Assembly: GCA_963422645.2 (NCBI GenBank) | Contig: CAXXVO010000004.1 | Span: forward strand, 1-64,000 | Length of the DNA stretch: 64,000 nucleotides | Direction: 5' to 3' | Source: Alphaproteobacteria bacterium | Lineage (GTDB): Bacteria; Pseudomonadota; Alphaproteobacteria; UBA828 | Part shown: positions 649-34,943 of the stretch, one piece after another | Position numbering within the stretch: the stretch's first letter is position 1 | How the letters are laid out: every line of letters starts with the position of its first letter | Notes under the pieces: generated by a model | The model's database searches: none | Told to the model about the DNA's origin: nothing | The model's input: the letters and a program-made list of their open reading frames with translations, nothing else | Made by a program: the position numbers and the translations under genes

Positions 649-2124
649 ATGGACAAGGACGACGCAGGCGCCAGGCGCGAGAAGTGGGCCCGGCTGCGCT
701 TTGCGGTGGTGGGGCCGCTTCTGGCTTCACCGCCGCCTGCAGGCCAGCTGGGGGCCGAGTTCGAGCGTCTGTCGCAGCGCGACTGGGAGCACCCGTCGGG
801 CAAGGGGCCGGTGCGCTTTGCGGCCTCGACGATCGAGCGCTGGTACTACCGGGCGCGGGCAGAGGAGCAGGACCCGGTCAAGGCGCTGCGCCGGAAGCCT
901 CGGACCGACGTCGGCCGCGAGCGGTCCATGTCGGCGGGGCTGATCGCGGCGCTGCGCGAGCAGTACCGGGTCCATCCCTCGTGGGCGGCGCAGCTCCACT
1001 ACGAGACCCTCAAGGCTCATGTTGCGACCCATCCCGAGCTCGGCCCGATGCCGTCCTACGCGACGCTGACGCGGGCGATGCGCAATCGCGGCCTGGTGCG
1101 CGAGCGCCCCAGGAAGTGGCACGAGGGTGAGGACAAGCCGGCGGTCGAAGCCCGCGAGGTCCTTAGCTACGAGGTGTCTCGCAGTCACGCGCTGTGGCAC
1201 GGGGACTTCCACCACGGCAAGCGCCGCGTGCTGACGGCGTCGGGCGAATGGCAGACGCCCATCCTGCTCGGCTTCCTCGACGACCACTCCAGGCTTGGCT
1301 GCCACCTGCAGTGGTACCTGGAGGAGACCGCCGAGGTCTTCGTCCACGGGCTCTGTCAGGCCTTCATGAAGAGGGACTTGCCCAGGTCCCTGCTGACCGA
1401 CAACGGCGGGCCGATGACGGCGGGCGAGGTCGAGGAGGGCTTGCACCGCCTCGGCATCGTGGGGGCCACGACACTCGCTTACAGCCCCCATCAAAATGGA
1501 AAAATCGAGTCGTTCTGGGGCACGGTCGAGGGCCGCCTGATGGCTCAGCTCGAAGGCGTCGACGCGCTCACCCTGAAGATGCTCAACGACGCCACCATAG
1601 CCTGGCTGGAGCAGGACTACCATCGGCGGGTGCACCGCGAGCTCGGCATGACGCCGCATGAACGCCTCGCCGGGAGCGTCAAGGCATCGAGGCCCTGCCC
1701 CGCCTCGGACGAGCTCAAGGCGGCCTTCCGCATCGCCAGGAAGCGCACGCTCAGGCGCTCGGACGGCACCGTCTCGGTCGAGGGCATCCGCTACCAGGTG
1801 CCACAGCCGTGGCGCCACCTGAGGACGCTCTGGGTCCGCTATGCGCGCTGGGACCTCAGCGGCGTCGATCTGGTGGAAGGCCGAAGCGGCGAGCGGCTGT
1901 GCACGCTGTACCCCCTCGACAAGCGCGGCAACGCCGATGGCGTCCGCCGTCCTGCGAGACCCGGCAGCGACCATGGCGGCGCCAGCGCGGGCGTCGGCGA
2001 ACTTCCGCCGCTGCTCAAGGGCGTGCTCGACGCCCAGGCCGCAACAGGCCTGCCGCCGGCCTGGGTACCCCATAACAAGACGCCCGGTCCGGGCGAGGAC
2101 GACGATCAGGGAGATCCGTCATGA
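649..2124 (+). CDS. DDE-type integrase/transposase (IS481/Mu-like rve core)
   Basis: WHGDFHH, FLDDHSR, LLTDNG and QNGKIESFW motifs; N-terminal HTH (STIERWY); RBS GGGAGG before ATG 649. Confidence 0.92.
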   Translation: MDKDDAGARREKWARLRFAVVGPLLASPPPAGQLGAEFERLSQRDWEHPSGKGPVRFAASTIERWYYRARAEEQDPVKALRRKPRTDVGRERSMSAGLIAALREQYRVHPSWAAQLHYETLKAHVATHPELGPMPSYATLTRAMRNRGLVRERPRKWHEGEDKPAVEAREVLSYEVSRSHALWHGDFHHGKRRVLTASGEWQTPILLGFLDDHSRLGCHLQWYLEETAEVFVHGLCQAFMKRDLPRSLLTDNGGPMTAGEVEEGLHRLGIVGATTLAYSPHQNGKIESFWGTVEGRLMAQLEGVDALTLKMLNDATIAWLEQDYHRRVHRELGMTPHERLAGSVKASRPCPASDELKAAFRIARKRTLRRSDGTVSVEGIRYQVPQPWRHLRTLWVRYARWDLSGVDLVEGRSGERLCTLYPLDKRGNADGVRRPARPGSDHGGASAGVGELPPLLKGVLDAQAATGLPPAWVPHNKTPGPGEDDDQGDPS

Positions 2125-2954
2125 ACCGCGAGCTGCTCACCTTCTACGGGCTCAAATGGAACCCCTTCGCCACCGACCTTCCGGTCGACAGCCTCATGGT
2201 GAGCCCCGCCGTCGACAGCTTCTGCCTCAGAATCGAGCATCATCTTGTGCGCCAGGGCGGCTTCGCGTTGATCGCCGGCGAGCCCGGCACCGGAAAGAGC
2301 GTGGCGTTGCGCGTGCTCGCCGACCGCCTCGGCCGCTCGGACGGGCTCAGGGTCTGTGCCATCACCCACCCCTCTTCCAGGCTGTCCGACTTCTACCGCG
2401 AGATCGGCGGGATGTTCGGCGTCGACCTGATGTACAACAACCGCTGGGCCAGCTTCAAAAACCTGCGCGAGCGATGGCTCACCCATGTCGACGACACCCG
2501 CATGCGGCCCGTGGTGCTCATCGACGAGGCCCAGGAGCTGCTGCCCTCGGTGATCTCCGAGATCCGCCTGCTGGCGTCCACCGACTTCGACTCGCGCGCC
2601 ATCCTCTCGGTCGTCTTCGCCGGCGACAGCCGCCTGATCGACAGGCTCCGCCAGCCCGACTTGCAGCCCATCGCCTCGCGCCTGCGCCAGCGCCTGGTCA
2701 TGACCCAGGCAGACGCCGGCGACCTCGCGGCCCTGCTCGACCATCTGGTCGAGCAGGCCGGCAATCCGGGCCTCATGAGCGCAGAGCTCAAGGACACCCT
2801 GGTCACCCACGCCGGCGGCAACCCCAGGGCGCTTACCGTCATGGGCGACATGCTGCTCGCCGCCGGCGCCGAGAAGAACCGCGAGGTTCTCGACGAGAAG
2901 CTCTTCATGGAGATCCTGGGCGAGCCCGCCAAGCCGAAGAGGGCACGGCGGTGA
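2121..2954 (+). CDS. ExeA-family AAA+ ATPase (transposition helper, TnsC/MuB-like role)
   Basis: FYGLKWNPF N-terminus, Walker A GEPGTGKS, Walker B VLIDEAQ, GGNPR motif. Confidence 0.92.
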   Translation: MNRELLTFYGLKWNPFATDLPVDSLMVSPAVDSFCLRIEHHLVRQGGFALIAGEPGTGKSVALRVLADRLGRSDGLRVCAITHPSSRLSDFYREIGGMFGVDLMYNNRWASFKNLRERWLTHVDDTRMRPVVLIDEAQELLPSVISEIRLLASTDFDSRAILSVVFAGDSRLIDRLRQPDLQPIASRLRQRLVMTQADAGDLAALLDHLVEQAGNPGLMSAELKDTLVTHAGGNPRALTVMGDMLLAAGAEKNREVLDEKLFMEILGEPAKPKRARR

Positions 2955-3949
2955 AGGGCTTCCCGACACGGGCGCCGATGCAGCTCGAGGATCGCCCCCG
3001 GGCGCAACAGTGGATGGTGGACACGCTGTGGGCCGAGCAGGCCGTGGGCATCGTCGGCGGCGAGCCCAAGTGCGGCAAATCCCTGCTCGCGCTCGATCTC
3101 GCCGTCGCCGTGGCCACCGGCGTCCCATGCCTGCGCCACTACCGCCCCAGCGCAAGCGGCACCGTGCTGCTCTTCGCCGCCGAGGACGCCGGCCACAGGG
3201 TGCGCAAGCGTCTGCAGGGGATCGCCCGCGCCGCCGCCACCCCCTTCGACGAACTCGACATCGCCGTCATCGACGTGCCCACCCTGCGTCTCGACCGGCC
3301 CGGCGACCGTCAACGCCTGCAGCAGACCGTGGAGCGCATCGAACCGCGCCTCCTGATCCTCGATCCCCTGGTCCGCCTGCACAGCGTCGACGAGAACGCC
3401 GTCGCAGAGATCGCCCCCATCCTCGGCTTCCTGCGCGAACTGCAGCGCCGCTTCGAAACCGCCGTCCTCCTCGTCCACCACGCCCGCAAGAGCGGCGGCA
3501 CCCGGCCGGGGCAGGCCCTGCGCGGGAGCAGCGAGCTGCACGCTTGGGGTGACTCAAATCTGTACCTGCGCCGGCGCGACAAGAAGATCGTCATGACGGT
3601 CGAGCAGCGCGACGCCCGGGGCCTCAACGACATCGAGCTGGAACTCGTCGACGGCGGACATGGGCCGGCCTTCCGTCTGCACCAGGACGCGGCAGATGAA
3701 GACAGGCACGAGCCCGCCACCGTCGAGCAGCGCGTCTTCAAGGCGATCGAGCAGGCCGAAAAGCCGCTCTCGAAAGCCCAGATCCGCTCACGCGCCGCTG
3801 CCCGCAACGCCACCGTCGTTGCCGCCATCGAGAGCCTCACCAGGGAGGGGCGCATCGAACGGGCGCCCAGGGGTGGCTATCGCCTCGCAGCCGCCGAGGC
3901 GCACCGGGAGCCGCAATCCCCTGCCGCCATCAACGGAAGTGCGGGATGA
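2951..3949 (+). CDS. RecA-fold ATPase (AAA_25 / RepA-type helicase) with C-terminal winged helix
   Basis: GEPKCGKS, LFAAED, LLILDPL, VHHARK and RGSS motifs; GTG at 2951 overlaps the upstream TGA. Confidence 0.85.
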   Translation: MKGFPTRAPMQLEDRPRAQQWMVDTLWAEQAVGIVGGEPKCGKSLLALDLAVAVATGVPCLRHYRPSASGTVLLFAAEDAGHRVRKRLQGIARAAATPFDELDIAVIDVPTLRLDRPGDRQRLQQTVERIEPRLLILDPLVRLHSVDENAVAEIAPILGFLRELQRRFETAVLLVHHARKSGGTRPGQALRGSSELHAWGDSNLYLRRRDKKIVMTVEQRDARGLNDIELELVDGGHGPAFRLHQDAADEDRHEPATVEQRVFKAIEQAEKPLSKAQIRSRAAARNATVVAAIESLTREGRIERAPRGGYRLAAAEAHREPQSPAAINGSAG

Positions 3950-23603: not shown

Positions 23604-25288
23604 ATGCTGGTTGTGGAAACGATCGCGAAGATTCGTCGGGATCATCTGGTGAAGGGCGTTCCGATCAAGAAGCTCGCCCGGGATTTGAGGGTTTCCAAGA
23701 ACACGATACGCAAGGTGGTGCGGGGCGATGCGACCTCGCACAGCTACGAGCGCAAGATCCAGCCGATGCCGAAGCTTGGGCCGTGGGTGGAAGAGCTCGA
23801 GCGCCAACTGGAGGCCAACGAGAAGAAGAAGCGCAAGGATCGCCTGACCCTGCTGCAGATCCATGAGGACCTTGGCGAGCTGGGCTACAAGGGCGGCTAT
23901 GACGCGGTGCGCCGCTATGCCAGGGCCTGGCGGCGCCGGTGGCGGCTGTTGTCGCCGTCGCAGGCCTTTGTGCCGCTGATCTTCGATCCGGGCGAGGCCT
24001 ACCAGTTCGACTGGAGCCACGAGTACGCGCGTCTGGCGGGTGCGACGACCAAGGTGAAGGCGGCGCACATGCGGCTGTGCCACAGCCGGATGTATCTGGT
24101 CCAGATCTTTCCCCGCGAGAGCCAGGAGATGGTGTTCATCGTGCGCTCCGCGCGCGTGGCCGCGCGACGCGCACGAGCGTGCCTTCTGCTTCTTCGGCGG
24201 GGTCTGCCGGCGGGGCATCTACGACAACATGAAGACGGCGGTGAACACGATTTTCGTCGGCAAGAAGCGGGACTACAACCGCCGCTTCCTGGAGATGTGT
24301 TCGCACCATCTGATCGAGCTTGTCGCGCGTCCACGCGCGCGGAGCGCACGATGGCGTGCACGCCAGGGGCTGGCTGGGAGAAAGGGCAGGTTGAGAAGCA
24401 GGTTGGTGACCTTCGTGGGCGCCTGTTCGCGCGCAGCCCGCGGGGCCGCTCCTACGCCGAGATCAACAAGTGGCTCATGGATCGGTGCATTGAGGAGGCC
24501 AAGAAGCAGCCGCATCCGACGATATCGGGCAAGACGGTGTGGCAGGTGTTCGGGGTCGCGCGTCCACGCGCGCGGAGCGCACGATGAGCGGTCCTTCCTG
24601 ATGGCGTACCGCGGCCCCTTCGACGGCTTCCATGCCAGCGAGGTGTCGGTCTCGAAGACCTGTCTGGTGCGCTACGACAACAACCAGTACAGCGTGGCGG
24701 CCCGTGCGGTGGGGCGGCCGGTGGACGTGCGGGCCTATGCCGATCGGATCGTCATCCGCCAGGACGGCGCGATGGTCGCCGAGCATCCCCGCAGCTTCGG
24801 GCGCGGCGAGATCGCCTACGATCCGTGGCACTACGTGCCGGTCCTGACGCGGAAGCCCGGCGCGCTGCGCAACGGCGCGCCCTTCAAGGGCTGGAAGCTG
24901 CCCACCGCGCTCGGCCGCCTGCGAACCCGGCTGGCGGCCCGCGACGACGGCGACCGGCAGTTCGTCAAGGTGCTGGCGGCGGTGCTGGAGGACGGGCTGT
25001 CGCGCGCTCATGCGCGCGCCAATATAGAGGACGGTCGAGGCGGCCTGTGCCGAGGCGCTCGACTGCGGCGCCTGCAGCGCTGACGTCGTGCGCTCCGCGC
25101 GCGTGGACGCGCGACGTGCTCAACGTCCTCGCCCGGCAGCGCCAGCCTGCGCCGCCGGCAACCATCCCGACGCCCGAAGGTCTGCAGCTCCGCCACCAGC
25201 CGGTTGCCGACTGCCGCCGCTACGACAGCCTGAGGGAGGACGGTCATCCGGTGTGGCGCGCGCATAAGCGCGCGACGGAGCGTCATGA
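23604..25288 (+). pseudogene. istA: IS21 transposase IstA disrupted by multiple short insertions
   Basis: QFDWS, IYDNMKTAV, WEKGQVE and RKPGALRNG are spread over different frames. Confidence 0.92.
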
Positions 25289-25331
25289 TGTGCTGGAGAT
25301 GTCGCGCGTCCACGCGCGCGGAACTCACGAT
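24138..25331. repeat. Seven dispersed ~31-nt palindromic micro-insertions
   Basis: Type A (GTCGCGCGTCCACGCGCGCGGAGCGCACGAT): 24138-24168(-), 24322-24352(+), 24555-24585(+), 25085-25115(-), 25301-25331(+). Type B (GTCGCGCGCTYATGCGCGCGCCA...): 24999-25029(+), 25246-25276(-). Confidence 0.95.
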
Positions 25332-26032
25332 GACGGCGCTGAAGCTCGCGGGCATGCGCGCCGCCTATGACGACATCCTCGCCGACGGGCTCAAGCGCCG
25401 CCACCCGGTGCAGCAGATCATCGGTACGCTGCTGCAGGTCGAGATCGCCGACAAGAGAGCACGCTCGATCAAGTACCAGATGGCCTCCGCCAAGCTGCCC
25501 ACGGCCTGCGGCGCTGGCCGACTTCGACTTCGCCGCCTCGCCGGTCCATGAGCCCCTGATCCAGGAGCTCGCCGGCAGCGGCTTCCTCGAGGGCCAGCGC
25601 AACATCGTGCTGGTCGGCGGTACCGGCACCGGCAAGACCCATCTCGCCGTCGCCATCGCGCGCTCCTGCATCCGCAAGGGCGCCCGTGGCCGGTGCTACA
25701 ACGTCGTCGACCTGGTCAACCTCCTCGAGGCCGAGCTTCGCGCCGGACGCCAGGGCCGCACTGCAGACCAGCTCGTCCGCCGCGACTTCGTCATCCTCGA
25801 CGAGCTCGGCTACCTGCCCTTCGCCCAGGCCGGTGGGCAGCTGCTCTTCCATCTGATGAGCCGGCTCTACGAGCGCACCTCGATCGTCATCACCACAAAC
25901 CTCGCCTTCGGCGAATGGCCCTCCGTCTTCGGCGACCCCAAGATGACCACGGCCCTGCTCGATCGTCTCACCCACCATTGCGAGATCATCGAGACCGGCA
26001 ACGAGAGCTGGCGCTTCAAGAACCGCTCCTGA
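25246..26032 (+). pseudogene. istB: IS21 ATPase IstB; start codon split by an insertion, plus further frameshifts
   Basis: [17 protein letters not shown] and LLDRLTHH motifs; the N-terminus MERHDVLEMMTALKL is recoverable after removing the inserts. Confidence 0.92.
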
Positions 26033-26168
26033 CCCGGCGCCGGCCTCCCTTGCGGCCCGGTTGCCCCGGTGGGCCAACCAATGGCATTCACTTAGCGGTT
26101 TTCGACTGTTCACTTAAGGAGTCGTGTTCTTGCGCTGTCGGTTGCGTGCGTTTCTGTCGTTCAGGTGT

Positions 26169-27671
26169 TCAGGCGACGGCCCGCTTTGCGCGTGCCCACT
26201 TGCCGCGGGGTTTGCGCGACCTGCGTTCGCAGGACCGGCCGGGGTGCGGGCGCTGACGCGCCTGGTTGATGCAGGAGAGGACATGGCTGAGGGTTTCGGC
26301 GACCATCGCCGTATGGCGCAGCAGCAGCGCTTCGAGGTTGCGCGCGACGGTGGCGAGGCCGTTGCTGAAGTTGGCTTTCATCGCCGGCTTGCCGTCGGCA
26401 GGGCGCTCGGCGTCGAGGCTTGCGTTGCTGCGGTTGGTGAAGAGCCGGGTCATGGCGATGAGGTTGAAGTGGGCGAAGAGCTCCTGGCGGACGCCGCGCT
26501 CGGTCTGGCTGTGGAAGGCCTCGACGGCCATGGCCTGTTTCGAGGTCTTGTAGAGTTCCTCGATTCCCCAGCGCGCGTGATAGAGCTCGGCCAGTTCCGC
26601 GACGCTCCAGGCCTTGGGGTCGAGGAGGGTGGTGGCGAGGATGAAGACCGTGCTGCCGATGCGGTAGCGGACCAGTCGCAGGCGCAGCGGGGTGGCGTCG
26701 ACGTGCGGCGTCTTGCGGCGCAGCTTTCTCAGGGTGTCCTTTCCGGGAGCGACGGTGATCGGCGCGTCCGTGCGGCCGTCGGCGATGAAGGCGTCGAGGG
26801 CGGCGCCTGCCTTCTTCTTGATCCGGAACACGGGGTGCAGGCCGCGGGCGACATGGGCGTGCAGCATCTCCCAAGAGTAGTAGCCGCGGTCATAGACCAC
26901 GATGTCGTTGGCCGAGAGCGCCTTGAGGTGGGCGAGGGCGGCCCTTCTTTCGTCGCCGTGCGCGACCAGGTCGAAGTCCACCGGGATGTTCGCGTGCAGC
27001 CGGTAGAGGCAACTCAGCAGGCCCTGCGGGTAGTGGGCCGCCTCGGAGGGCGTGCGGTAGCCGGCCTTGAGCAGCGGCCGCGGCAGGTTGAGCTTGGAGC
27101 CGTCGACCGCGAACACGCGGTGGCCCTTCCAGGCCGGGCCGTCGGCGCGCTTGAGGATCTCGGCGTGCAGCGTCTTGAACACCGCCTCGTCGACCTTGGC
27201 CCGCGCCATGCACATCGCCGAGGCCGAGACCGGCGCCGGCTGCGGCAGTGCGACGCCCAGGACCCGGCACTGCTCCCACAGCCCGGCCAGCGTCGTGGCG
27301 TAGCCCGCGCGGCCGTTCGAGAACGCCAGCCGGAAGATGAAGAGCATGACGAGAAGGGTGTCGAGGACCCGCCGGCGGCTCTGCCACACCCGGTCGTGAT
27401 CGGCGGCCACCGCCGCCAGTGCGCCGATCAGGTCCTGCCACAGCGCCACGAAGGGATCGTCCGGCGCCAGCGCTGCCGGCCGTGTCCTGTTCCCGCGCCG
27501 CGCCGGCCGCGGGCCTTCGAGCAGGATCGAGCGGAAGTCCGGCGTCAGCGGGTAGACGTAGACGCTTTTGCGGGTCTTGCCCTTGCCGCCCCCGGTCTCG
27601 CCGAGACAGCGCCAGTTGGCCGCGCGGTAGCAGGCGCCGTCGAAGAGGCTGGGGTCCACGAAGGTCTCCAC
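26169..27671 (-). pseudogene. C-terminal part of DUF4338-IS4 transposase
   Basis: ETFVD..GACYRAANW (end of DUF4338); AVDGS, YDRGY and Y..RWGIEE.YK (IS4 YREK). Confidence 0.88.
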
Positions 27672-27791
27672 GAACGTCACAGACTACTATCTTGCAGGCT
27701 TCCGAGGCTCCTGAGCCCGTTCGCATTCGACGCTACAAGCATCCTTTCGACGGTGAGGCGATCGAGATTCTCGATCGGCGCAAAGGAGGTT

Positions 27792-30303
27792 CAGACTTCC
27801 TGACCTCGTGATGCTGGCTGTTCTGGGCAGCGTGCCGGGAACTCCTTGAATTCTGATACATTTCGGTTGTTTCAGGCGGTTTTTCGCTGGGTGTCGCGCC
27901 CGAGGTCTGATATTATAATTTGATACCAATTGCACGGTCTCAACCATGCCCAGTACCCTCCCAATGTGCCCTCCAGAGGCGGTCTCGATCGGCAACAGCT
28001 GCTTCGCCGTCCTGATCTCGGACGACACCTTCACCTACTTTTCCAACCTCATTCCCTTTGACAGCCACGCCGCCGATGACCGCACGGCCATGCTCTTGCG
28101 GATCGGCCGCCTCGCGGCGATCAGCGCGGTCTCGCCGCAGGAACTGGCTGACGCTTTCGCTGTCTCGCGCGCGACGGTGCAGCGCGCACGACGGCGCTAC
28201 CTGGCCGAGGGCGAAGCGGGGTTCATGAAGCCCCGGCGCGGTCGCGGGCCGTCGGTGTTCACTCCGGAGTTGGCGGAGAAGGCGACGGCGTTGCTGGCAT
28301 CGGGCCTGAGCGGCTCTGCGGCGGCCCGGGTTCTCGGCGTGTCAGCGCCATCGGTCAACAAGTGGCGCCGTCAGGGACTGATCGGCAACACGGAGGCGGA
28401 TGGGGAGCCCGGACGCTCAGCGCTGGCTGCGCCGCCTGACGCGGGTGCGGCTCCTGAAGGCCGTGTCGATGAAGAGAGTACCGGTGCCCCGGGGCCGGAG
28501 ACGGCGCCGGGGCTGGAAGCGCAGCCGCAAACGGATCGCAGCGCGCGCGATCGGCGGGACCGGCAGGCGCCGATGGGGCGTGCGACTTGCGATGTTCCGG
28601 CTCGGGTTCTGGCCAGTTGTGGACAGGCGGGGCCGGTCGAACCGCAGTTCGCCGCCGCCGCCCGCGGTGTCCGCTTCGGCGGCGTGCTCGCCGCCCTGCC
28701 GGCCCTGCTGAAGGAAGGTCTTCTCTCCGAGACCGGTCTCCTGCCATTGCTGCCGAAGGGCTATTACGGCTTGCCTACGATCCTGCTCTTCCTGGCCTTC
28801 ATGACCTTGGCGCGGGTGCGCAACCCCGAGAGCCTGCGCTACCAGGCGCCGGGCGAATGGGGCGCCATTCTCGGCCTCGATCGCTGCCCCGAGGTCAAGA
28901 CGCTGCGCCGCAAGATCGCTCTCATCGCCGACGACGAGGCCGGCGTGCGGGCGTGGCAGCTCGCCCTTGCCAGGCGCTGGCAAGGCCGACGAGCCGGAGC
29001 TCTGGGCGACGCTGGCCATCGACGGGCACGTCAAGGTCTACTCCGGCCGCAAGGGGCGCTTGCCCAAGCACTTCGTCTCGCGCGAGAAGCTGTGCCTGCC
29101 GGCGAGCGCCAGCTACTGGATCAACGCTCTGGGCGGCAAGCCGCTGCTCTGTCTGCACAAGCCGCTGGACCCGAAGATGGTCGCGGCCATCGAAGCCGAC
29201 GTGGTGCCGGCGCTGCAGGAGCTTGGGATCGTTGGCGCCGGGGCGCCGGACCTGACCGCCGAGCATCCCGGCCAGCCGGCGCTCACCCTGGTCTTCGACC
29301 GCGAGGGCTGGAGCCCGGATCTGTTCCGCCGGCTGGCGAGGCGCGGCGTCGCCTGCCTGACCTGGCACAAGAACTTCAGGGGCGAGGACTGGCCGGCCGA
29401 GGACTTCGGCGCGATGACCGTTCCCATTCACGGACCGGCGGCGGACGGCAGCGCCACCATGCGGCTGGCTGAGAAGCCGGTGACGTTGCCGAACGGCTTC
29501 AGGGTGCGCCAGATCCGCCGCCTGCTCGACAACGGCCGTCAGGTGCCGCTGATCACCACCGATCCGCACAAGCCGATGGCTGAGGTTGCGGGCGCCATGT
29601 TCTCGCGCTGGTCGCAGGAGAACTTCTTCAAGTACATGCGTGACGAGTTCAATCTCGACGCCCTGCCGACCCACGAGCTCGAGCCTCTCGATCCCGCCGC
29701 CATGGTCGTCAACCCGCTGCGGCGGGCCTATGACAAGGCAATCCATCGCCTCGACCGCCAGCTTGGCCGCCTGCGCAACCGCATCGCCGACACGGCCCGG
29801 AAGAAGCAGCCGACGGCGGAACTCAGGAGGGAAGTCAGGGACCTCCAGGATGTCCGCGACATCGTCAGGGCCAGCCGCAGGGAGACGCCCAAGCACTGCC
29901 GGGCCGGCGACCTCGACGAAGCCGAGCAGCTCGATGCCTTGCCCGCGCGCGAGCGCCTCCTCCTCGACGTCATCCGGATGATCGCCTACCGCGCCGAAAC
30001 CCGCATGATGCTTCCCGTCATGCAGGCGCAGGGCCACAAGCCCCATCCCCGGAAACTGCTTCAAGCGCTGCTCACCGCCGATGCCGACATCCTGCCGGAT
30101 CCTGGCAATGGCCTCCTGCGGGTCCACATTCTTGGCCTCGCAAACGACGCCTGCGACCGTTGGATCGATGCGGTTCTGAGCGACCTGAACGCCACCGAAA
30201 CGGTCTTCCCCGGCACCCGTCTGCGCATAGTCTACGACATCGACGGGGCCTCGGAATCCGCGCGGCTCGTGTCACCTAAAATCAGCAGAGGTCAGGAAGT
30301 CTG
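27792..30303 (+). mobile_element. Unclassified 2512-bp IS, copy 1
   Basis: 16-bp TIR CAGACTTCCTGACCTC; 5-bp TSD AGGTT. Confidence 0.93.
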
Positions 30304-30304
30304 A
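27946..30304 (+). pseudogene. Putative DDE transposase with N-terminal HTHs, frameshift near 28980
   Basis: HTH motifs and YQAPGEWG in the first frame; IDGH, VFDREG and RWSQENFFK in the second. Confidence 0.8.
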
Positions 30305-30456
30305 GGTTACGGGGGCCGGACTCTGAAGGTTCGGATGCCGGACGGCAGCTGTTGTTGGATACCAGCGGCATGGACGAGCCTTGGAGCCCGTCCCGAGGAT
30401 GCACCACGCCTGATCGGAGAGTTGTCTGATTTCCTCACCCTCCTTAATCTTCTGAA

Positions 30457-31505
30457 CCGCTTATGCACATGGCTCCGGTTCGATCAACATGCTGTAGGTA
30501 AGGGGTTTTGCATTGGTGGCGATGCGGAAGAGCGAGCGGAAAGCAGCGTGGCGGGTTTTGCGGCGGTTGAAGCGAAAGGCGAACTCATCGAGATAGGCCT
30601 GCAGATGCTTGCGGCGCAGCCCGTGGTAGACGCCTCGCGCCCATCCTTTGAGGTTGGAGAAGACTTGGTGGATCCACGGCAGGACGAGGTGAGCGGCGGT
30701 CTTCCCGACGACATGGACATTGTGGCGATCGGCGGGGACCGCAGCGTAGCCGGACCAGCCGTCGGTTTTCGCGATGGCGTCGGGATCGGCGGCGGTTTCG
30801 ACGAAGTGTCCGAGGTCGGCGGCGCCGTAGGAGGAGATTTCGGCCAGCCGCAGGCGGCCCGGGATGGTTCCATCCCCCAGTTCGATGGCGCCGACGATGA
30901 GCATCTTGCCGTCGTGGCTGCGTCCTTGCCCTCCGGTGGGAGGATCGTCTTTGGTCCGGAATGGAAGGCTGGCCTCGTCGATTTCCACCAGGCCCGACAA
31001 CGGGTTGCGCTCGGGGTCGACCATGCTGGCGCGCAGCTTGTGGGCGAGCAGCCAAGCGCTGCGGTAAGAGCCGATACCGAGCTGTTTCTGGAGCTGCAGG
31101 GCAGAGATGCCGTTGGAGTGGGTCGCCATCAGGTAGGCGGCCCAGAACCAGACGGTGAGCGGCAGCTTGCTGGCGTGCAGGATCGTCCCGGCCGTCACCG
31201 AGGTCTGCCGGCGGCAGCCGGCGCACTCGAAGGTGTGTGCTTTTCTGCGCAGCGCCCATCCCTTTTCATGGCCGCACGCGGGACAGACGAAGCCGTCCGG
31301 CCAGCGCATTTCGATCAGCCAGGCGGCGCAGGCGTCATCGTCCGGGAACATGTGCTGGAAGGCGAGGAGGCTGTCGGCGACCTGTTTCATGTGGTGGCTC
31401 CGTCGGCAGGAACGTATAGGCAACATTCTACCCGTTCTCCCGCCCTAACCTCAACCTCAACATCTGGTGGCAAACTCTCGCGACCGGAGCCATGTGCATA
31501 AGCGG
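30457..31505 (-). mobile_element. IS1595-family element
   Basis: 23-bp TIR CCGCTTATGCACATGGCTCCGGT; flanking direct repeat TCTTCTGAA (30448-30456, 31507-31515). Confidence 0.92.
30461..31390 (-). CDS. IS1595-family transposase
   Basis: RWPDGFVCPAC zinc ribbon, VEIDE, TDGW and YLDEFAFRFNRR motifs. Confidence 0.95.
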   Translation of the reverse strand: MKQVADSLLAFQHMFPDDDACAAWLIEMRWPDGFVCPACGHEKGWALRRKAHTFECAGCRRQTSVTAGTILHASKLPLTVWFWAAYLMATHSNGISALQLQKQLGIGSYRSAWLLAHKLRASMVDPERNPLSGLVEIDEASLPFRTKDDPPTGGQGRSHDGKMLIVGAIELGDGTIPGRLRLAEISSYGAADLGHFVETAADPDAIAKTDGWSGYAAVPADRHNVHVVGKTAAHLVLPWIHQVFSNLKGWARGVYHGLRRKHLQAYLDEFAFRFNRRKTRHAAFRSLFRIATNAKPLTYSMLIEPEPCA

Positions 31506-31544
31506 TTCTTCTGAATGACCTTGATGAGAGGGAACTCAGGCGCG

Positions 31545-31736
31545 ATGGATGCGGAGCAGGAGTTGGCGCTGATCGCGCTGATGGAGTGGGAGGAGCGCCG
31601 GGACCGGTGGCTGGCGTTTCCGGCTCCGGACCGGGATCGCGTCGTGCAGGGTCTGGCCGATCTGATGGTTCGGATTGCGGATCGGGAGGCGGCCGATGAC
31701 GGTCGATCCGTCGAAGATCACCCAGCGTCATCTTGA
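31545..31736 (+). CDS. Small hypothetical protein overlapping the recombinase start
   Basis: Short helical ORF (W..FP...R..VVQGLADLMVR) immediately upstream of the LSR. Confidence 0.45.
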   Translation: MDAEQELALIALMEWEERRDRWLAFPAPDRDRVVQGLADLMVRIADREAADDGRSVEDHPASS

Positions 31737-33876
31737 GCGTCTTGCAGTTGTCTACGTTCGCCAGTCGACACCCTTGCAAGTGAACGCGCACCAGGAATCG
31801 CAGCTGCGCCAATACGCGCTTGGCGAGCGTGCCCGGGAGATTGGCTGGCCGGCCGAGCGGATACGGACGATCGACGCCGATCTTGGCGAGAGCGCAAGCG
31901 AGAAGGCGCGCGGCGAGCGTGGCGGCTTTCGGGAGATGTGCGACCTGATCGCCCGGGACCATGTCGGGGGCATCTTCGGGATTGAGGTTTCGCGGCTCGC
32001 CAGGAACACGATGGAATGGTTTCAGCTTCTCGATCTATGTCGCAGGCACGACACGGTTCTGGTTGAGGACTGCCACATCTACTGCCCGAGCCGGGACGAC
32101 GACTCCCTTGTCCTGGGGATCAAGGGAACCGTGAGCGCCGCTGAGCTGTCTCTTATTCGCGCCCGGATGGAGGGCGGAAAGCGGAACAAGGCGCTTCGTG
32201 GCGAGTTGTACTCGCGCGTTCCGATCGGATTTGTGCGGGATGGCTCGACTTTGCGGAAGGATCCGGATGCCCGGGTTCAGGCGGCGATTGCAACGGTCTT
32301 TGCGCGTTTTCGGCAAGCCGGTTCGGCCCGCCAGGCGACGATGCTGCTGCGTGAGGCGGGCGAGGATGTTCCCTCTCGCCGGCACCCGGGGGCAGCATTG
32401 GAATGGGGCCCGGCGCGCTATGAACGGGTGTACCGCATCCTCACCAACCCGGCGATGGGCGGCGCCTATGCCTACGGCTTCAAACGCGGCGTTGGTCACG
32501 GTGCGCCGCTGCGGCCGGTCCAGGAGCGCTGGGATATTCTTCAGCCGGAGAAGCATGAGGGATATGTCAGTTGGGCAGAATGGCTTGAAGTACAGGAGCA
32601 GCTGGCCCGCAACCACATGGCTCCGGACGGAGCCCGCGGCGCGGCGCGGGAAGGGTCGGCTCTGCTCCAGGGTCTCGCGGTCTGCGGCGGCTGCGGATTG
32701 CCGATGACCGTCTACTACAGCAAGACGGGCTGGGGGTATGAGTGCCGCAAGCGCGATGCTGCGCGCCGGCGCGGCGGTTGTTGGTCGACAGGCGGCAAGC
32801 GCGTTGATGCGGAAGTTGCCCGTCTGTTTCTCGATGCGGTCACGCCGGCGGGGGTGGAGGCGGCCCGGCAGGCGGCTTGTGATGTTGCTGAACGCGGCCT
32901 GCGCGCGTTGCGCCGTTGGGAGCTGGATCTTGAGCACTGCCGGTACGAGGCGCGGCTTGCCGAGCGGCGCTACAAGCAGGTCGATCCCGACAACCGTCTG
33001 ATTGCGGCAACGCTGGAGCGCGAGTGGGAGAAGGCGCTTCGCGCCGAGAAGGCTGCACAGGAAGCGCTTGAGGCGGCACGGGCGCGTCAGCCCGCGGCCC
33101 CTGCCCCGGCGGTTTTCGAGGGTCTCGGCGCGCGCCTGTCGCAGGTCTGGGGGGCGTCGTCGACGACCATGCGCGAGCGCAAGCGCCTGCTCGCCTGCCT
33201 CCTCGACGAGGTGACGATCGAGCTTGCGCGACAGGAGCGTGAGATCATGGCAACATTGCGCTGGCGTGGCGGGCAGATCGACGAGATCACTTTGCCGATG
33301 CTCGCGGGCTCTCCGACACCCCGGCGCGATGAGCGCAGCACGGTCGAGCTCGTGCGCAAGCTGTCATGCTTTTACAACGACCGGGAGACCGCGAAGGTTC
33401 TCACCCGCCAGGGACGGCGCACAGCACGGGGTCTGGATTTCACGGCCGAGCTTGTTGGCAGCCTGCGTCGCCGCCATGGCATTGCGCCCTACCAGCCCGA
33501 CGGGGACGAGCCGGTGCTCATGGGCGTTGCCGATGTGGCGAAGGAGATCGGAGTCTCGGATGACACCATCTATCGCTGGATCCGCGAGGGGCTGGTTCCG
33601 GTTGCCCAGCCCGATATCGAAGGTGCTCCTCTTCGGATCCGGATGACCCCGACCTTGCGCGAGCGCTTTCGTGAGGCGCCTCCGGAGGGGTTTGTTCCCC
33701 TCGCTGTGGCAATGGATCGTCTGGGTGTCACGCGGCAGACGGTCTGGGAACGGATCAAGGCGGGCAGGCTGGACAGCTGCCATGTGACCCGCGGCAAGAC
33801 GCGCGGACTGTATGTGCGTTTGCCGGTCGAGGACGAACTGCCGCTGCTGCGCGGGCTCAACGGTGATGGGGGGTGA
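31696..33876 (+). CDS. Large serine recombinase with zinc ribbon and C-terminal HTH domains
   Basis: VYVRQST, DLGESAS, EVSRLAR, LLQGLAVCGGCG and DPDNRL motifs; RBS GGAGG. Confidence 0.95.
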   Translation: MTVDPSKITQRHLERLAVVYVRQSTPLQVNAHQESQLRQYALGERAREIGWPAERIRTIDADLGESASEKARGERGGFREMCDLIARDHVGGIFGIEVSRLARNTMEWFQLLDLCRRHDTVLVEDCHIYCPSRDDDSLVLGIKGTVSAAELSLIRARMEGGKRNKALRGELYSRVPIGFVRDGSTLRKDPDARVQAAIATVFARFRQAGSARQATMLLREAGEDVPSRRHPGAALEWGPARYERVYRILTNPAMGGAYAYGFKRGVGHGAPLRPVQERWDILQPEKHEGYVSWAEWLEVQEQLARNHMAPDGARGAAREGSALLQGLAVCGGCGLPMTVYYSKTGWGYECRKRDAARRRGGCWSTGGKRVDAEVARLFLDAVTPAGVEAARQAACDVAERGLRALRRWELDLEHCRYEARLAERRYKQVDPDNRLIAATLEREWEKALRAEKAAQEALEAARARQPAAPAPAVFEGLGARLSQVWGASSTTMRERKRLLACLLDEVTIELARQEREIMATLRWRGGQIDEITLPMLAGSPTPRRDERSTVELVRKLSCFYNDRETAKVLTRQGRRTARGLDFTAELVGSLRRRHGIAPYQPDGDEPVLMGVADVAKEIGVSDDTIYRWIREGLVPVAQPDIEGAPLRIRMTPTLRERFREAPPEGFVPLAVAMDRLGVTRQTVWERIKAGRLDSCHVTRGKTRGLYVRLPVEDELPLLRGLNGDGG

Positions 33877-34065
33877 CCATGCCCGGACCGTCAGGCAAAA
33901 CGCCCGATGCAGATCCGCACCTCCAACGTGCGATACTGGAAAATCACGTCCGGCACGATGTAAAGGTCGCCGCGGCGGCAACAACGGAATCCAAACCGCC
34001 TTTTCTATCAATGCGGTAGAAACGCCCGCCCACCTGCACAACGGAGAAGCATTATGAAGCCTTCA

Positions 34066-34783
34066 TCTCCACCAGAACCGGGCGCGCTCCGAAGCGCGCC
34101 TCCCAGTCGCCGGGCAGCTGGCGCAGCGCCATCGACAGCGCTTTCGACGCCAGGTTGTCGACCCGGACCCAGGGAAAGATCAGGAAACGCGTGTGACCCA
34201 CGACCAGATCGAGGTGCTTGCGGAAGCCTTCCGCCGGCCACCCGATCCACTCGTCGCGGCAGGGCACCGCGCGCGACGCCCGGGCAAACAGAAGGCAGCC
34301 CAGAGGCCGCCCGTGGCGGTCCAGGAGAAAATAGCGCAGATGCGCGCCGACCAGACGATGCAGCCCGAGATAGTGGTGGCGCGCGACGAACTCGTTCCAC
34401 AGCCCGCCCTCCTCCTTGCCCGCCGCAATCGACAGGCGCAGCGGCATCAGCGCGGCCAGGTCCTCCGCGATCGCCGCGGCCGGCGCCGTCCGCTCGCTCC
34501 GGGCCATCGCCTCCTGCGGCCCCCGCACCTGCGCCTCGTCCCGCGCCGGCAGGGTCAGGATGCCCAGCCGCTCCAACTCCTCCAGCATCCGCAGGCAGAC
34601 CGCGACACGGTTCCGCCCGCTCGGCGCGCGCCAGTTCAAATGCTCGCAGATCGTGTGCCCGAGCTCGTTGCGGCTGATCGCCGGAAACAGCGCCACCGTC
34701 TCCTGGATGTCGGCAATCTGCCGGCGGGTCAGACGTCTGCCGAAAAAGGTCGTCGACTTCAGCGCGGTGATGCGGGGGTCCAT
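34066..34783 (-). pseudogene. N-terminal DUF4338 (DruA-like) part of the IS4 transposase
   Basis: WNEFVARHHYLG, RDEWIGW and RFLIFPWVRVDNLAS motifs. Confidence 0.85.
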
Positions 34784-34943
34784 GGGCCGGCTCCACTGAC
34801 AGGGGGACAGCCACAGTGTGCCAAAGCACACGCCGCCGGTCAATCCCCCTCGTGCGGGAAACGCCGAGACCGACAATCCACACAAGAAATCAACTCGTTA
34901 CGACACCACCAAAAAACCCCGGAACAATCTTCGCGCCAAATGA

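Follow-up and report, generated by a model that had tools for sequence, protein, structure and literature searches.

In the SSV1-type ("suicidal") tyrosine integrases of archaeal viruses and plasmids, the recombination site lies in the integrase gene, which is whole only in the circular form, and the passages of the review that deal with such self-disrupting recombinases place them only in archaea (PMC8371274). Here we describe a bacterial element with a related arrangement. It lies at 27665-34072 of a 64,000-nucleotide (nt) stretch of an alphaproteobacterial genome (contig CAXXVO010000004.1, positions 1 to 64,000), called the window below, and is one copy of a two-gene mobile element with TCTCCAC at both ends. 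The intact element is 2832 bp long and consists of a DUF5372-like gene of about 156 codons (the small gene) and the gene of a 726-aa large serine recombinase (LSR). As in the SSV1 type, the recombination site is inside the element's own gene, which is split by integration. However, the SSV1 type cuts the integrase itself, a tyrosine recombinase, into two large halves, whereas here the recombinase is whole and of the serine type. The split affects the accessory gene, which loses no more than its Shine-Dalgarno sequence (SD), its start codon and 4-5 codons, and hosts are found in many bacterial phyla.

In mycobacteriophage BPs and its relatives, attP is within a regulatory gene whose product depends on integration (PMC4557955). 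BPs is a phage with a tyrosine integrase and is not similar to an insertion sequence (IS). Its integration reportedly removes the 3' end of the gene and so yields a stable, active repressor that is on in the integrated state; this polarity is opposite to that of the element studied here. In ICEKp1, a switch of the int promoter allows expression across the joined ends of the excised form (PMC13023037). Junction-promoter systems resemble our element in that the circle puts an expression signal of one end before a gene at the other end, favouring re-integration. Promoters formed at joined ends are also known for tnpX of Tn4451 and for IS911 and IS30. All these switches are transcriptional, whereas here the crossover falls inside a coding sequence and cuts off its ribosome-binding site and start codon. 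The LSR transposons of the Tn4451/Tn5397 type (TnpX, TndX) are excised as a circle and inserted at a 2-bp core without target duplication (PMC3158075). They carry cargo and mobilisation genes, and no DUF5372 partner has been described for them; the present element has 2.8 kb, two genes and 12 loci in one genome, and, unlike them, targets genes of other mobile elements. A literature search of limited scope (supplementary files excluded) found no paper naming DUF5372. Nor did it find a description of a serine-recombinase element with an accessory gene completed across the junction, or of such an element in group II intron genes. A gene split by its attachment site is already known from archaeal integrases, and a gene altered by integration from BPs; a version with a serine recombinase and an accessory gene was found in no paper covered by this search.

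The divided small gene and the crossover site

The open reading frame (ORF) at the left end (frame of 27674) lacks both ATG and GTG as far as the conserved HPF motif; the sole in-frame canonical start before HPF in the window copy is TTG at 27692-27694. At the right end, GGAG (34043-34046) is followed after 7 nt by ATG (34054-34056), facing outward. When the repeat is counted once, ATG-AAG-CCT-TCA-TCT continues in frame into TCT-CCA-CGA at 27665, and the N-terminus becomes MKPS joined to SPRT. A first-pass annotation of this DNA had claimed a left-end ORF without ATG, an outward GGAG-N7-ATG at the right end and an in-frame ORF after joining through one TCTCCAC. Direct reading bears out each of these points, and we could narrow the exchange itself to TCTC. 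Codons 1-15 of the small gene contain the attP site; after integration, the SD and the start are found at the right end together with 4-5 codons. The crossover core is inside the ORF, and the complete small ORF is present only in the joined form.

The element is present at 12 loci of the genome. Five copies are intact, with 100% identity over 2832 bp (C10:178466-181297, C14:17821-20652, C5:335240-338071, C6:280317-283148 and C6:342638-345469), two carry a 1-nt deletion that frameshifts the recombinase, and the remaining loci are interrupted or truncated. At least two small genes contain an IS, those of the window copy and of a copy on C8; the C3 copy breaks off at the base at which the window copy is interrupted, and one further copy is broken within the recombinase gene. 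The two IS hits in the window ORF noted in the first-pass annotation were confirmed (Table 1). In the intact copy L002 the small ORF is unbroken; it extends from the left end up to the recombinase gene, where its stop and the ATG of the recombinase share ATGA.

To locate the exchange, the copies were compared with each other and with unoccupied targets. Words of 30 nt occurred in the assembly 13 times for attB, 6 times for attL and 8 times for attR, and there are many empty copies of the target IS, each with TCTCCAC once. Four copies of the element lie in diverged relatives of the target gene, and two of these have TCTCCAC at attL and TCTCGAT at attR. Therefore, the crossover occurs within TCTC, and CAC is element DNA. 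The dyad geometry predicts a 2-bp core TC at 27667-27668 and 34068-34069. The dyad of the window attP mirrors 12 of 27 positions, compared with up to 16 of 27 in relatives with the same spacing (triplet, 11, 2, 11, triplet). Conservative exchange within TCTC without target duplication and with a restorable empty site fits a serine recombinase with a 2-bp core. The end-to-end junction word is absent from the source genome's own assembly, which cannot show rare circles. In contigs of four public sequencing runs, which drop rare forms, the one joint seen was that of the empty site (1045 to 3871), and the two ends were never joined to each other. No RNA run containing the element was listed.

The recombinase has a Resolvase domain (PF00239, E=8.5e-17), with R22-Q23-S24 invariant in 12 aligned homologues, a Recombinase domain (PF07508, E=2.4e-10) and a zinc ribbon (PF13408) whose 24.1 bits are just below the cut-off of 25.3. 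It also matches PHROG 95, "integrase" (E=7.8e-43). Its C-terminal part (residues about 599-700, window 33400-33870) is an excisionase-like helix-turn-helix (HTH) recognised by HTH_17, TIGR01764 and PHROG 66, "excisionase and transcriptional regulator" (E=8.9e-12). The classic subfamily has, instead of the fused HTH, a separate HTH gene between the DUF5372 gene and the recombinase.

The small protein of the window, read from the intact copy L002, matches Pfam PF17342 with E=0.0023 and 18.3 bits and does not reach the gathering cut-off of 25. PF17342 is matched by 24 of its 29 close relatives (E<=0.01), the same-genus relatives scoring 74.5-75 bits. Alignment of the window subfamily with classic DUF5372 proteins in hhalign gave 98.1% probability (E=1.1e-13, 93 columns). 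On these profile scores the window protein should be filed as a divergent relative of DUF5372 and not as a formal Pfam member; the earlier label "DUF5372-like" is weak for the protein itself and firm for its family. An exhaustive profile search at E<=0.001 collected 2305 representatives, and the family has invariant residues. Neither a word-based protein search with the window small protein, nor Pfam on the separate ORF fragments of the window, nor NCBIfam and PHROGs (0 matches) detected it, and among sequence profiles from the PDB nothing was significant (best E=0.5). The PF17342 domain starts at the HPF strand, so that the preceding 25-30 residues, junction included, are outside it. In the window subfamily a low-complexity tail of 60-70 residues reaches the recombinase start. 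Database gene calls for the family begin variously: some at MTHPF, some in the flank, and others at an internal Met, with loss of the conserved motif. Such inconsistent and truncated starts would be explained if the gene lacks a start of its own. In two database DUF5372 proteins (P0004 and P0011) the right-end-type peptide MVRRSL is followed by a short unrelated stretch and then by the left-end peptide; it looks as if a right and a left end had come to stand a few codons apart through adjacent or tandem insertions.

Conservation in relatives and naturally joined forms

Two sets of relatives were compared. Within the genus, recombinases 36-43% identical to that of the window occur in 9 of 20 other genomes, often in several copies. 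For the cross-phylum set, one genome per species and an alignment of 12 recombinases were used; of at least 553 stretches, 550 were confirmed, and the best 80 of these 550 were kept. The recombinase homologues compared are 36-44% identical. Acidobacteriota, Actinomycetota, Pseudomonadota, Chloroflexota, Gemmatimonadota, Nitrospirota, Cyanobacteria and other phyla are represented among the best 80. A profile of the small proteins detected a same-strand DUF5372-like ORF in 63 of these 80 loci. The other 17 gave no same-strand match; one of them (L106) has a weak match on the opposite strand, and several have little upstream DNA. Almost none of the small ORFs in the 80 loci has an ATG between the upstream stop and the domain.

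The ends of these elements share one architecture: a P arm with a five-base motif and a triplet, 11 nt, the 2-bp core, another 11 nt, and the mirrored triplet and motif of the P' arm. There are three attP types, which differ in sequence. We placed the ends by dyad symmetry alone, blind to the frame, with a dyad score of at least 12 for the strict set and at least 10 for the loose set. A dyad finder without the motif was dropped, as it returned many chance pairs, and motif plus geometry was used instead. The strict set comprised 45 loci, 38 of the 80 and 7 from the genus, the window included. In all 45 the right-end side offers an in-frame start (ATG in 37, otherwise GTG or TTG) from which the frame is open as far as the domain, whereas the other two frames gave this result in 1 and 3 of the 45. 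The loose set was in frame in 54 of 56 loci. One of the two exceptions (L071) is in frame with the correct arm; the left arm of the other (L076) is lost, and this locus contains an internal ATG. No P arm was found within 489 nt in L065, and L085 has two candidate arm pairs, one of them in frame. L109 and L112 were in frame in the first motif-plus-geometry pass and fell below the later dyad threshold, L061 is in frame by geometry with differing cores (AA and AG), and L089 and L108 are in frame only by manual reading with a YAT triplet. Conservation of the frame and of a ribosome-binding site with start across the in-silico circle was the check named in the first-pass annotation, and these elements pass it. 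As far as sequence comparison can tell, we have shown that the frame and the start across the predicted junction are conserved over several phyla.

In five more families (G037, G033 and G040, which come from the genus of the source genome, and G044 and G045) the ends were set independently, by comparison of copies, and all are in frame; for G046 the comparison did not pin down the core. The three copies of G037 have a common sequence that runs exactly from core CG to core CG. At their right end, GAGG is followed after 6 nt by an ATG right after the recombinase stop, and with CG counted once this ATG is in frame with a classic DUF5372 ORF. G033 (four copies) again has an in-frame ATG, with a different end sequence and shorter arm spacing. 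For G040 the core was fixed by an intact target at another locus, and the frame holds. Copy comparison in two further genomes, with 6 copies in Ralstonia pickettii and 4 in a gammaproteobacterial metagenome-assembled genome (MAG), confirmed the ends and the AA core of the window's subfamily.

The genes are also closely spaced. In 19 of 27 loci of clade A, the window subfamily, the small ORF ends in a stop that shares bases with the start of the recombinase (ATGA or GTGA), and three more have TGATG. The right-end start is located -10 to +15 nt from the recombinase stop in 35 of 45 loci; the window, with a 177-nt spacer, is unusual. Because of the stop/start overlap and the abutting right-end start, the two ORFs form a nearly gapless ring in the circle.

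Joined ends were searched for in natural sequences. A 2881-nt contig from a Chloroflexia MAG (L117) has an exact terminal overlap of 141 nt, which is the signature of a circle or a tandem, and in it the small ORF stands directly after the recombinase and runs from the P-arm ATG. A degenerate pattern that matches only adjoining arms found three metagenome contigs, each with the recombinase upstream and the small ORF downstream. The ORF has 185 codons to the stop in two of them and, owing to a frameshift, stops after 85 in the third (L119). Two joined-end patterns run against viral contigs gave 0 matches. We have shown by these contigs that joined forms with the small ORF occur in nature. The joined-form metagenome contigs also contain stretches that match neither the recombinase nor the small ORF, for example 1-497 and 2866-3225 of L120. 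These stretches and the L119 frameshift could be assembly errors or variants. The structural part of the first-pass reading, a gene apparently completed only across the joined ends, is supported by the broad conservation and by these natural joined forms.

Selection on the frame and other possible starts

Conservation of the frame could come from the protein or from the recombination site, and the variable parts of the elements help to separate the two. Between the P' arm and the conserved His codon, 30 of 34 loci have a whole number of codons, although this linker comes in six lengths (45, 51, 54, 57, 60 and 63 nt). In the other four it is 58 nt; there the start is shifted by -1 (GCA-GTG instead of GCAGT-NTG), or ATG(A) overlaps the recombinase stop, and the frame is restored. 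Where the canonical triplet is not a start, an in-frame start adjoins it (ATG at +3 in L062, TTG at +3 in L107 and L098). The two arms also differ. Among the 45 loci, the P arm has ATG as its triplet in 23 and GTG in 14, while the mirror image of this triplet in the P' arm is ATG in 3, GTG in 15, TGA in 11 and CTG in 8; P' arms of the classic subfamily have TGA or CGA at this place. In 40 of 45 loci the P-arm triplet follows an SD-like purine run. The linker lengths, the compensating start shift, the adjoining starts and the asymmetry of the arms argue for selection on the reading frame itself.

Several observations weigh against the reading that the small gene is completed only in the circle. 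Both the SD-like run and the NTG triplet belong to the half-site of the recombinase, which is mirrored in the P' arm, where GTG also occurs; therefore, part of the "conserved SD-ATG" is a constraint of the DNA site. The fixed dyad spacing (3+11+2+11 = 27 nt) by itself sets the frame within a clade, and since the loci are related by descent, the counts overstate the independent support. An in-frame GTG, TTG or ATG precedes the His codon in 24 of 45 loci, at varying Val/Leu positions, and in 22 of these 24, the window not among them, it is at most 8 codons away; internal initiation may thus give a slightly shorter protein. In addition, no sigma-70 consensus promoter was detected in the intact integrated element and its flanks, though the promoter types of the host may differ. 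Some family members have an internal ATG (P0002, P0006 and P0023) or one supplied by the flank (P0121, P0147, P0148 and L093), and in such lineages the protein may be made while the element is integrated. The split is therefore a rule and not a law. The multicopy family G041a lacks a DUF5372 gene altogether; the first of its genes starts with an ATG of its own, and its right end is without an outward ATG; in the G041 loci L020, L027 and L033, about 2.97 kb long, an HTH gene is present with its own ATG 13 nt inside the left end. Therefore, the protein is not needed for mobility in every lineage.

These facts allow the explanation that GGAG-N7-ATG is only a recombinase-binding motif and that the protein starts internally in the integrated state, at TTG 27692 in the window and at a GTG near the domain in relatives. 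Gene callers often choose a GTG directly before THPF, in agreement with it. However, the internal candidates stand at varying positions, 21 of 45 loci have no ATG, GTG or TTG between core and His codon, and only 1 of 45 has an internal ATG. TTG 27692, which the first-pass annotation had singled out as a start that would overturn its reading, lies 16 codons before the His codon and is found in 1 of 45 elements, the window's own. A coincidence of half-site and start also does not predict that a linker preceding any internal start varies by whole codons only, with a compensating shift in the frame-shifted subgroup, nor the excess of ATG in P arms, nor the mirrored triplets of clades B and C, none of which is a start codon at all. 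We consider this explanation improbable.

It is very improbable that the integrated ORF is translated from a start in neighbouring host or target DNA, with an N-terminus that depends on the target. The window frame is indeed open into the flank up to GTG 27419, P0121, P0147, P0148 and P0262 share a similar flank-coded N-terminal peptide in elements inside group II intron genes, and L093 has its flank ATG three codons before the core. But flanks differ among copies, the small ORF is antisense to the target gene, the flanks that were read have no conserved SD, and in L044 and L047 an in-frame stop, and no start, is directly upstream. The other explanation is that the small ORF is a decaying relic expressed in no state, its open frame reflecting high G+C. 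The window genome has 67% G+C and contains long chance ORFs, and the IS-interrupted small genes of the window and C8 copies, with the C3 copy ending at the same break, would suit decay. However, genomes of 48-56% G+C (L047, L065 and L052) retain the ORF at a length of 160-180 codons, and a family of this size with invariant residues remains linked to the recombinase in most loci, which makes a relic scarcely credible. With these alternatives weighed, we assign a probability of about 0.8 to the reading that the LSR moves an IS-like element via a circle, that its attP splits a DUF5372-family gene restored on excision, and that the protein would be made from the circle.

Surroundings of the element and possible role of the small protein

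The features of the window copy are collected in Table 1. As the two halves of the target gene encode DruA/DUF4338 and DDE_Tnp_1, the target is an insertion sequence itself. The transposase of the IS at 27791-30304 lies in two overlapping frames (27946-29472 and 28967-30304), which reflect either a frameshift or programmed slippage. We also considered, and rejected, a third gene in a 73-codon ORF (31515-31736), since relatives keep the DUF5372 frame open to the recombinase start. The intact element matches no Rfam family. The stretch at 24229-26113, upstream of the target IS, contains ORFs resembling another IS, among them an ATPase-like ORF (25367-26032) with a GTGKTH Walker motif. The region around the target IS is a pile-up of mobile elements.

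Table 1. Positions of the element, its target and the inserted IS in the window
Feature	Position	Strand	Remarks
Target gene, distal half	26169-27668	-	DDE_Tnp_1 part of DruA-DDE transposase; multicopy IS
attL TCTCCAC	27665-27671	.	repeat also at attR; crossover inside 27665-27668; CAC 27669-27671 is element DNA
DUF5372-like ORF, piece 1	27665-27790	+	overlaps P' arm of attP; no ATG/GTG, sole start TTG 27692
Transposase_29-family IS	27791-30304	+	2514 bp; perfect 17-bp terminal inverted repeats; 3-bp duplication GGT
DUF5372-like ORF, piece 2 (domain core)	30305-30456	+	
IS1595-family IS	30457-31506	-	transposase 30461-31426, minus strand; 8-9-bp duplication
DUF5372-like ORF, piece 3 (low-complexity tail)	31507-31699	+	stop TGA 31697-31699 overlaps recombinase ATG (ATGA)
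Large serine recombinase, 726 aa	31696-33876	+	Resolvase, Recombinase and zinc-ribbon domains; C-terminal excisionase-like HTH
Spacer, recombinase stop to SD	33877-34042	+	unusually long for the family
P arm of attP	34043-34069	+	SD GGAG 34043-34046; ATG 34054-34056; first small-gene codons up to core TC 34068-34069
attR TCTCCAC	34066-34072	.	
Target gene, proximal half	34070-34885	-	DruA (DUF4338) domain part

In other phyla, the family splits the group II intron reverse transcriptase at position 79/80 of the RVT_1 profile, in the ..KFFD.. motif and always in antisense orientation. Examples of target loci are L062 (Ralstonia pickettii CP158805.1), L049 and L044. Judging from such loci, members of the family appear to land mostly in genes of other mobile elements.

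The following sequence of events is the most likely one. Integration cuts the small gene between codons 5 and 6, because attP lies inside its first codons. The integrated element then has the SD, the start and the first 4-5 codons at its right end, facing outward, and a promoterless, start-less body at its left end. Excision joins the ends into one ORF, and the circle is in most relatives a nearly gapless two-gene ring, probably coupled in translation. In this case the full-length small protein would be made only, or mainly, from the circle, and the coupling may raise translation of the recombinase. The protein may act with the recombinase on the circle, where it would most likely favour or regulate re-integration.

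Small accessory proteins encoded with LSRs are known as recombination directionality factors, for example phiC31 gp3 and Bxb1 gp47. We found no sequence relation of the small protein to these factors in PHROGs or in the PDB profiles. Such factors are required before excision, which cannot be initiated by a protein that appears only afterwards. Since the small protein would be lacking at the onset of excision, the role of a classical excision factor is less likely for it; that part may fall to the excisionase-like HTH fused to the recombinase. A more speculative proposal, which we regard as possible but rather unlikely in its full form, is that DUF5372 is a state-sensing co-factor, a "reverse directionality factor". 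The recombinase alone, through its fused HTH, would excise the element, the circle-born protein would switch it to integration and boost translation via ATGA, and re-integration would reset the system; the circle would then be a closed ring of the two coupled ORFs that lacks intergenic DNA.

The arrangement described here would be a simple route for a mobile element to sense its own state, since recombination writes or erases the start of a gene. It would correspond, at the level of translation, to junction promoters and, in bacteria and with a serine recombinase, to the split integrase genes of archaeal viruses. It defines a widespread two-gene, IS-like family, with the 2305 small-protein representatives and at least 550 recombinase stretches given above. 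Since the ORF runs through attP, the att sites of many uncharacterised LSRs become readable from sequence. The small protein is a candidate partner that may set the direction or efficiency of LSRs, which is relevant to their use in genome engineering.

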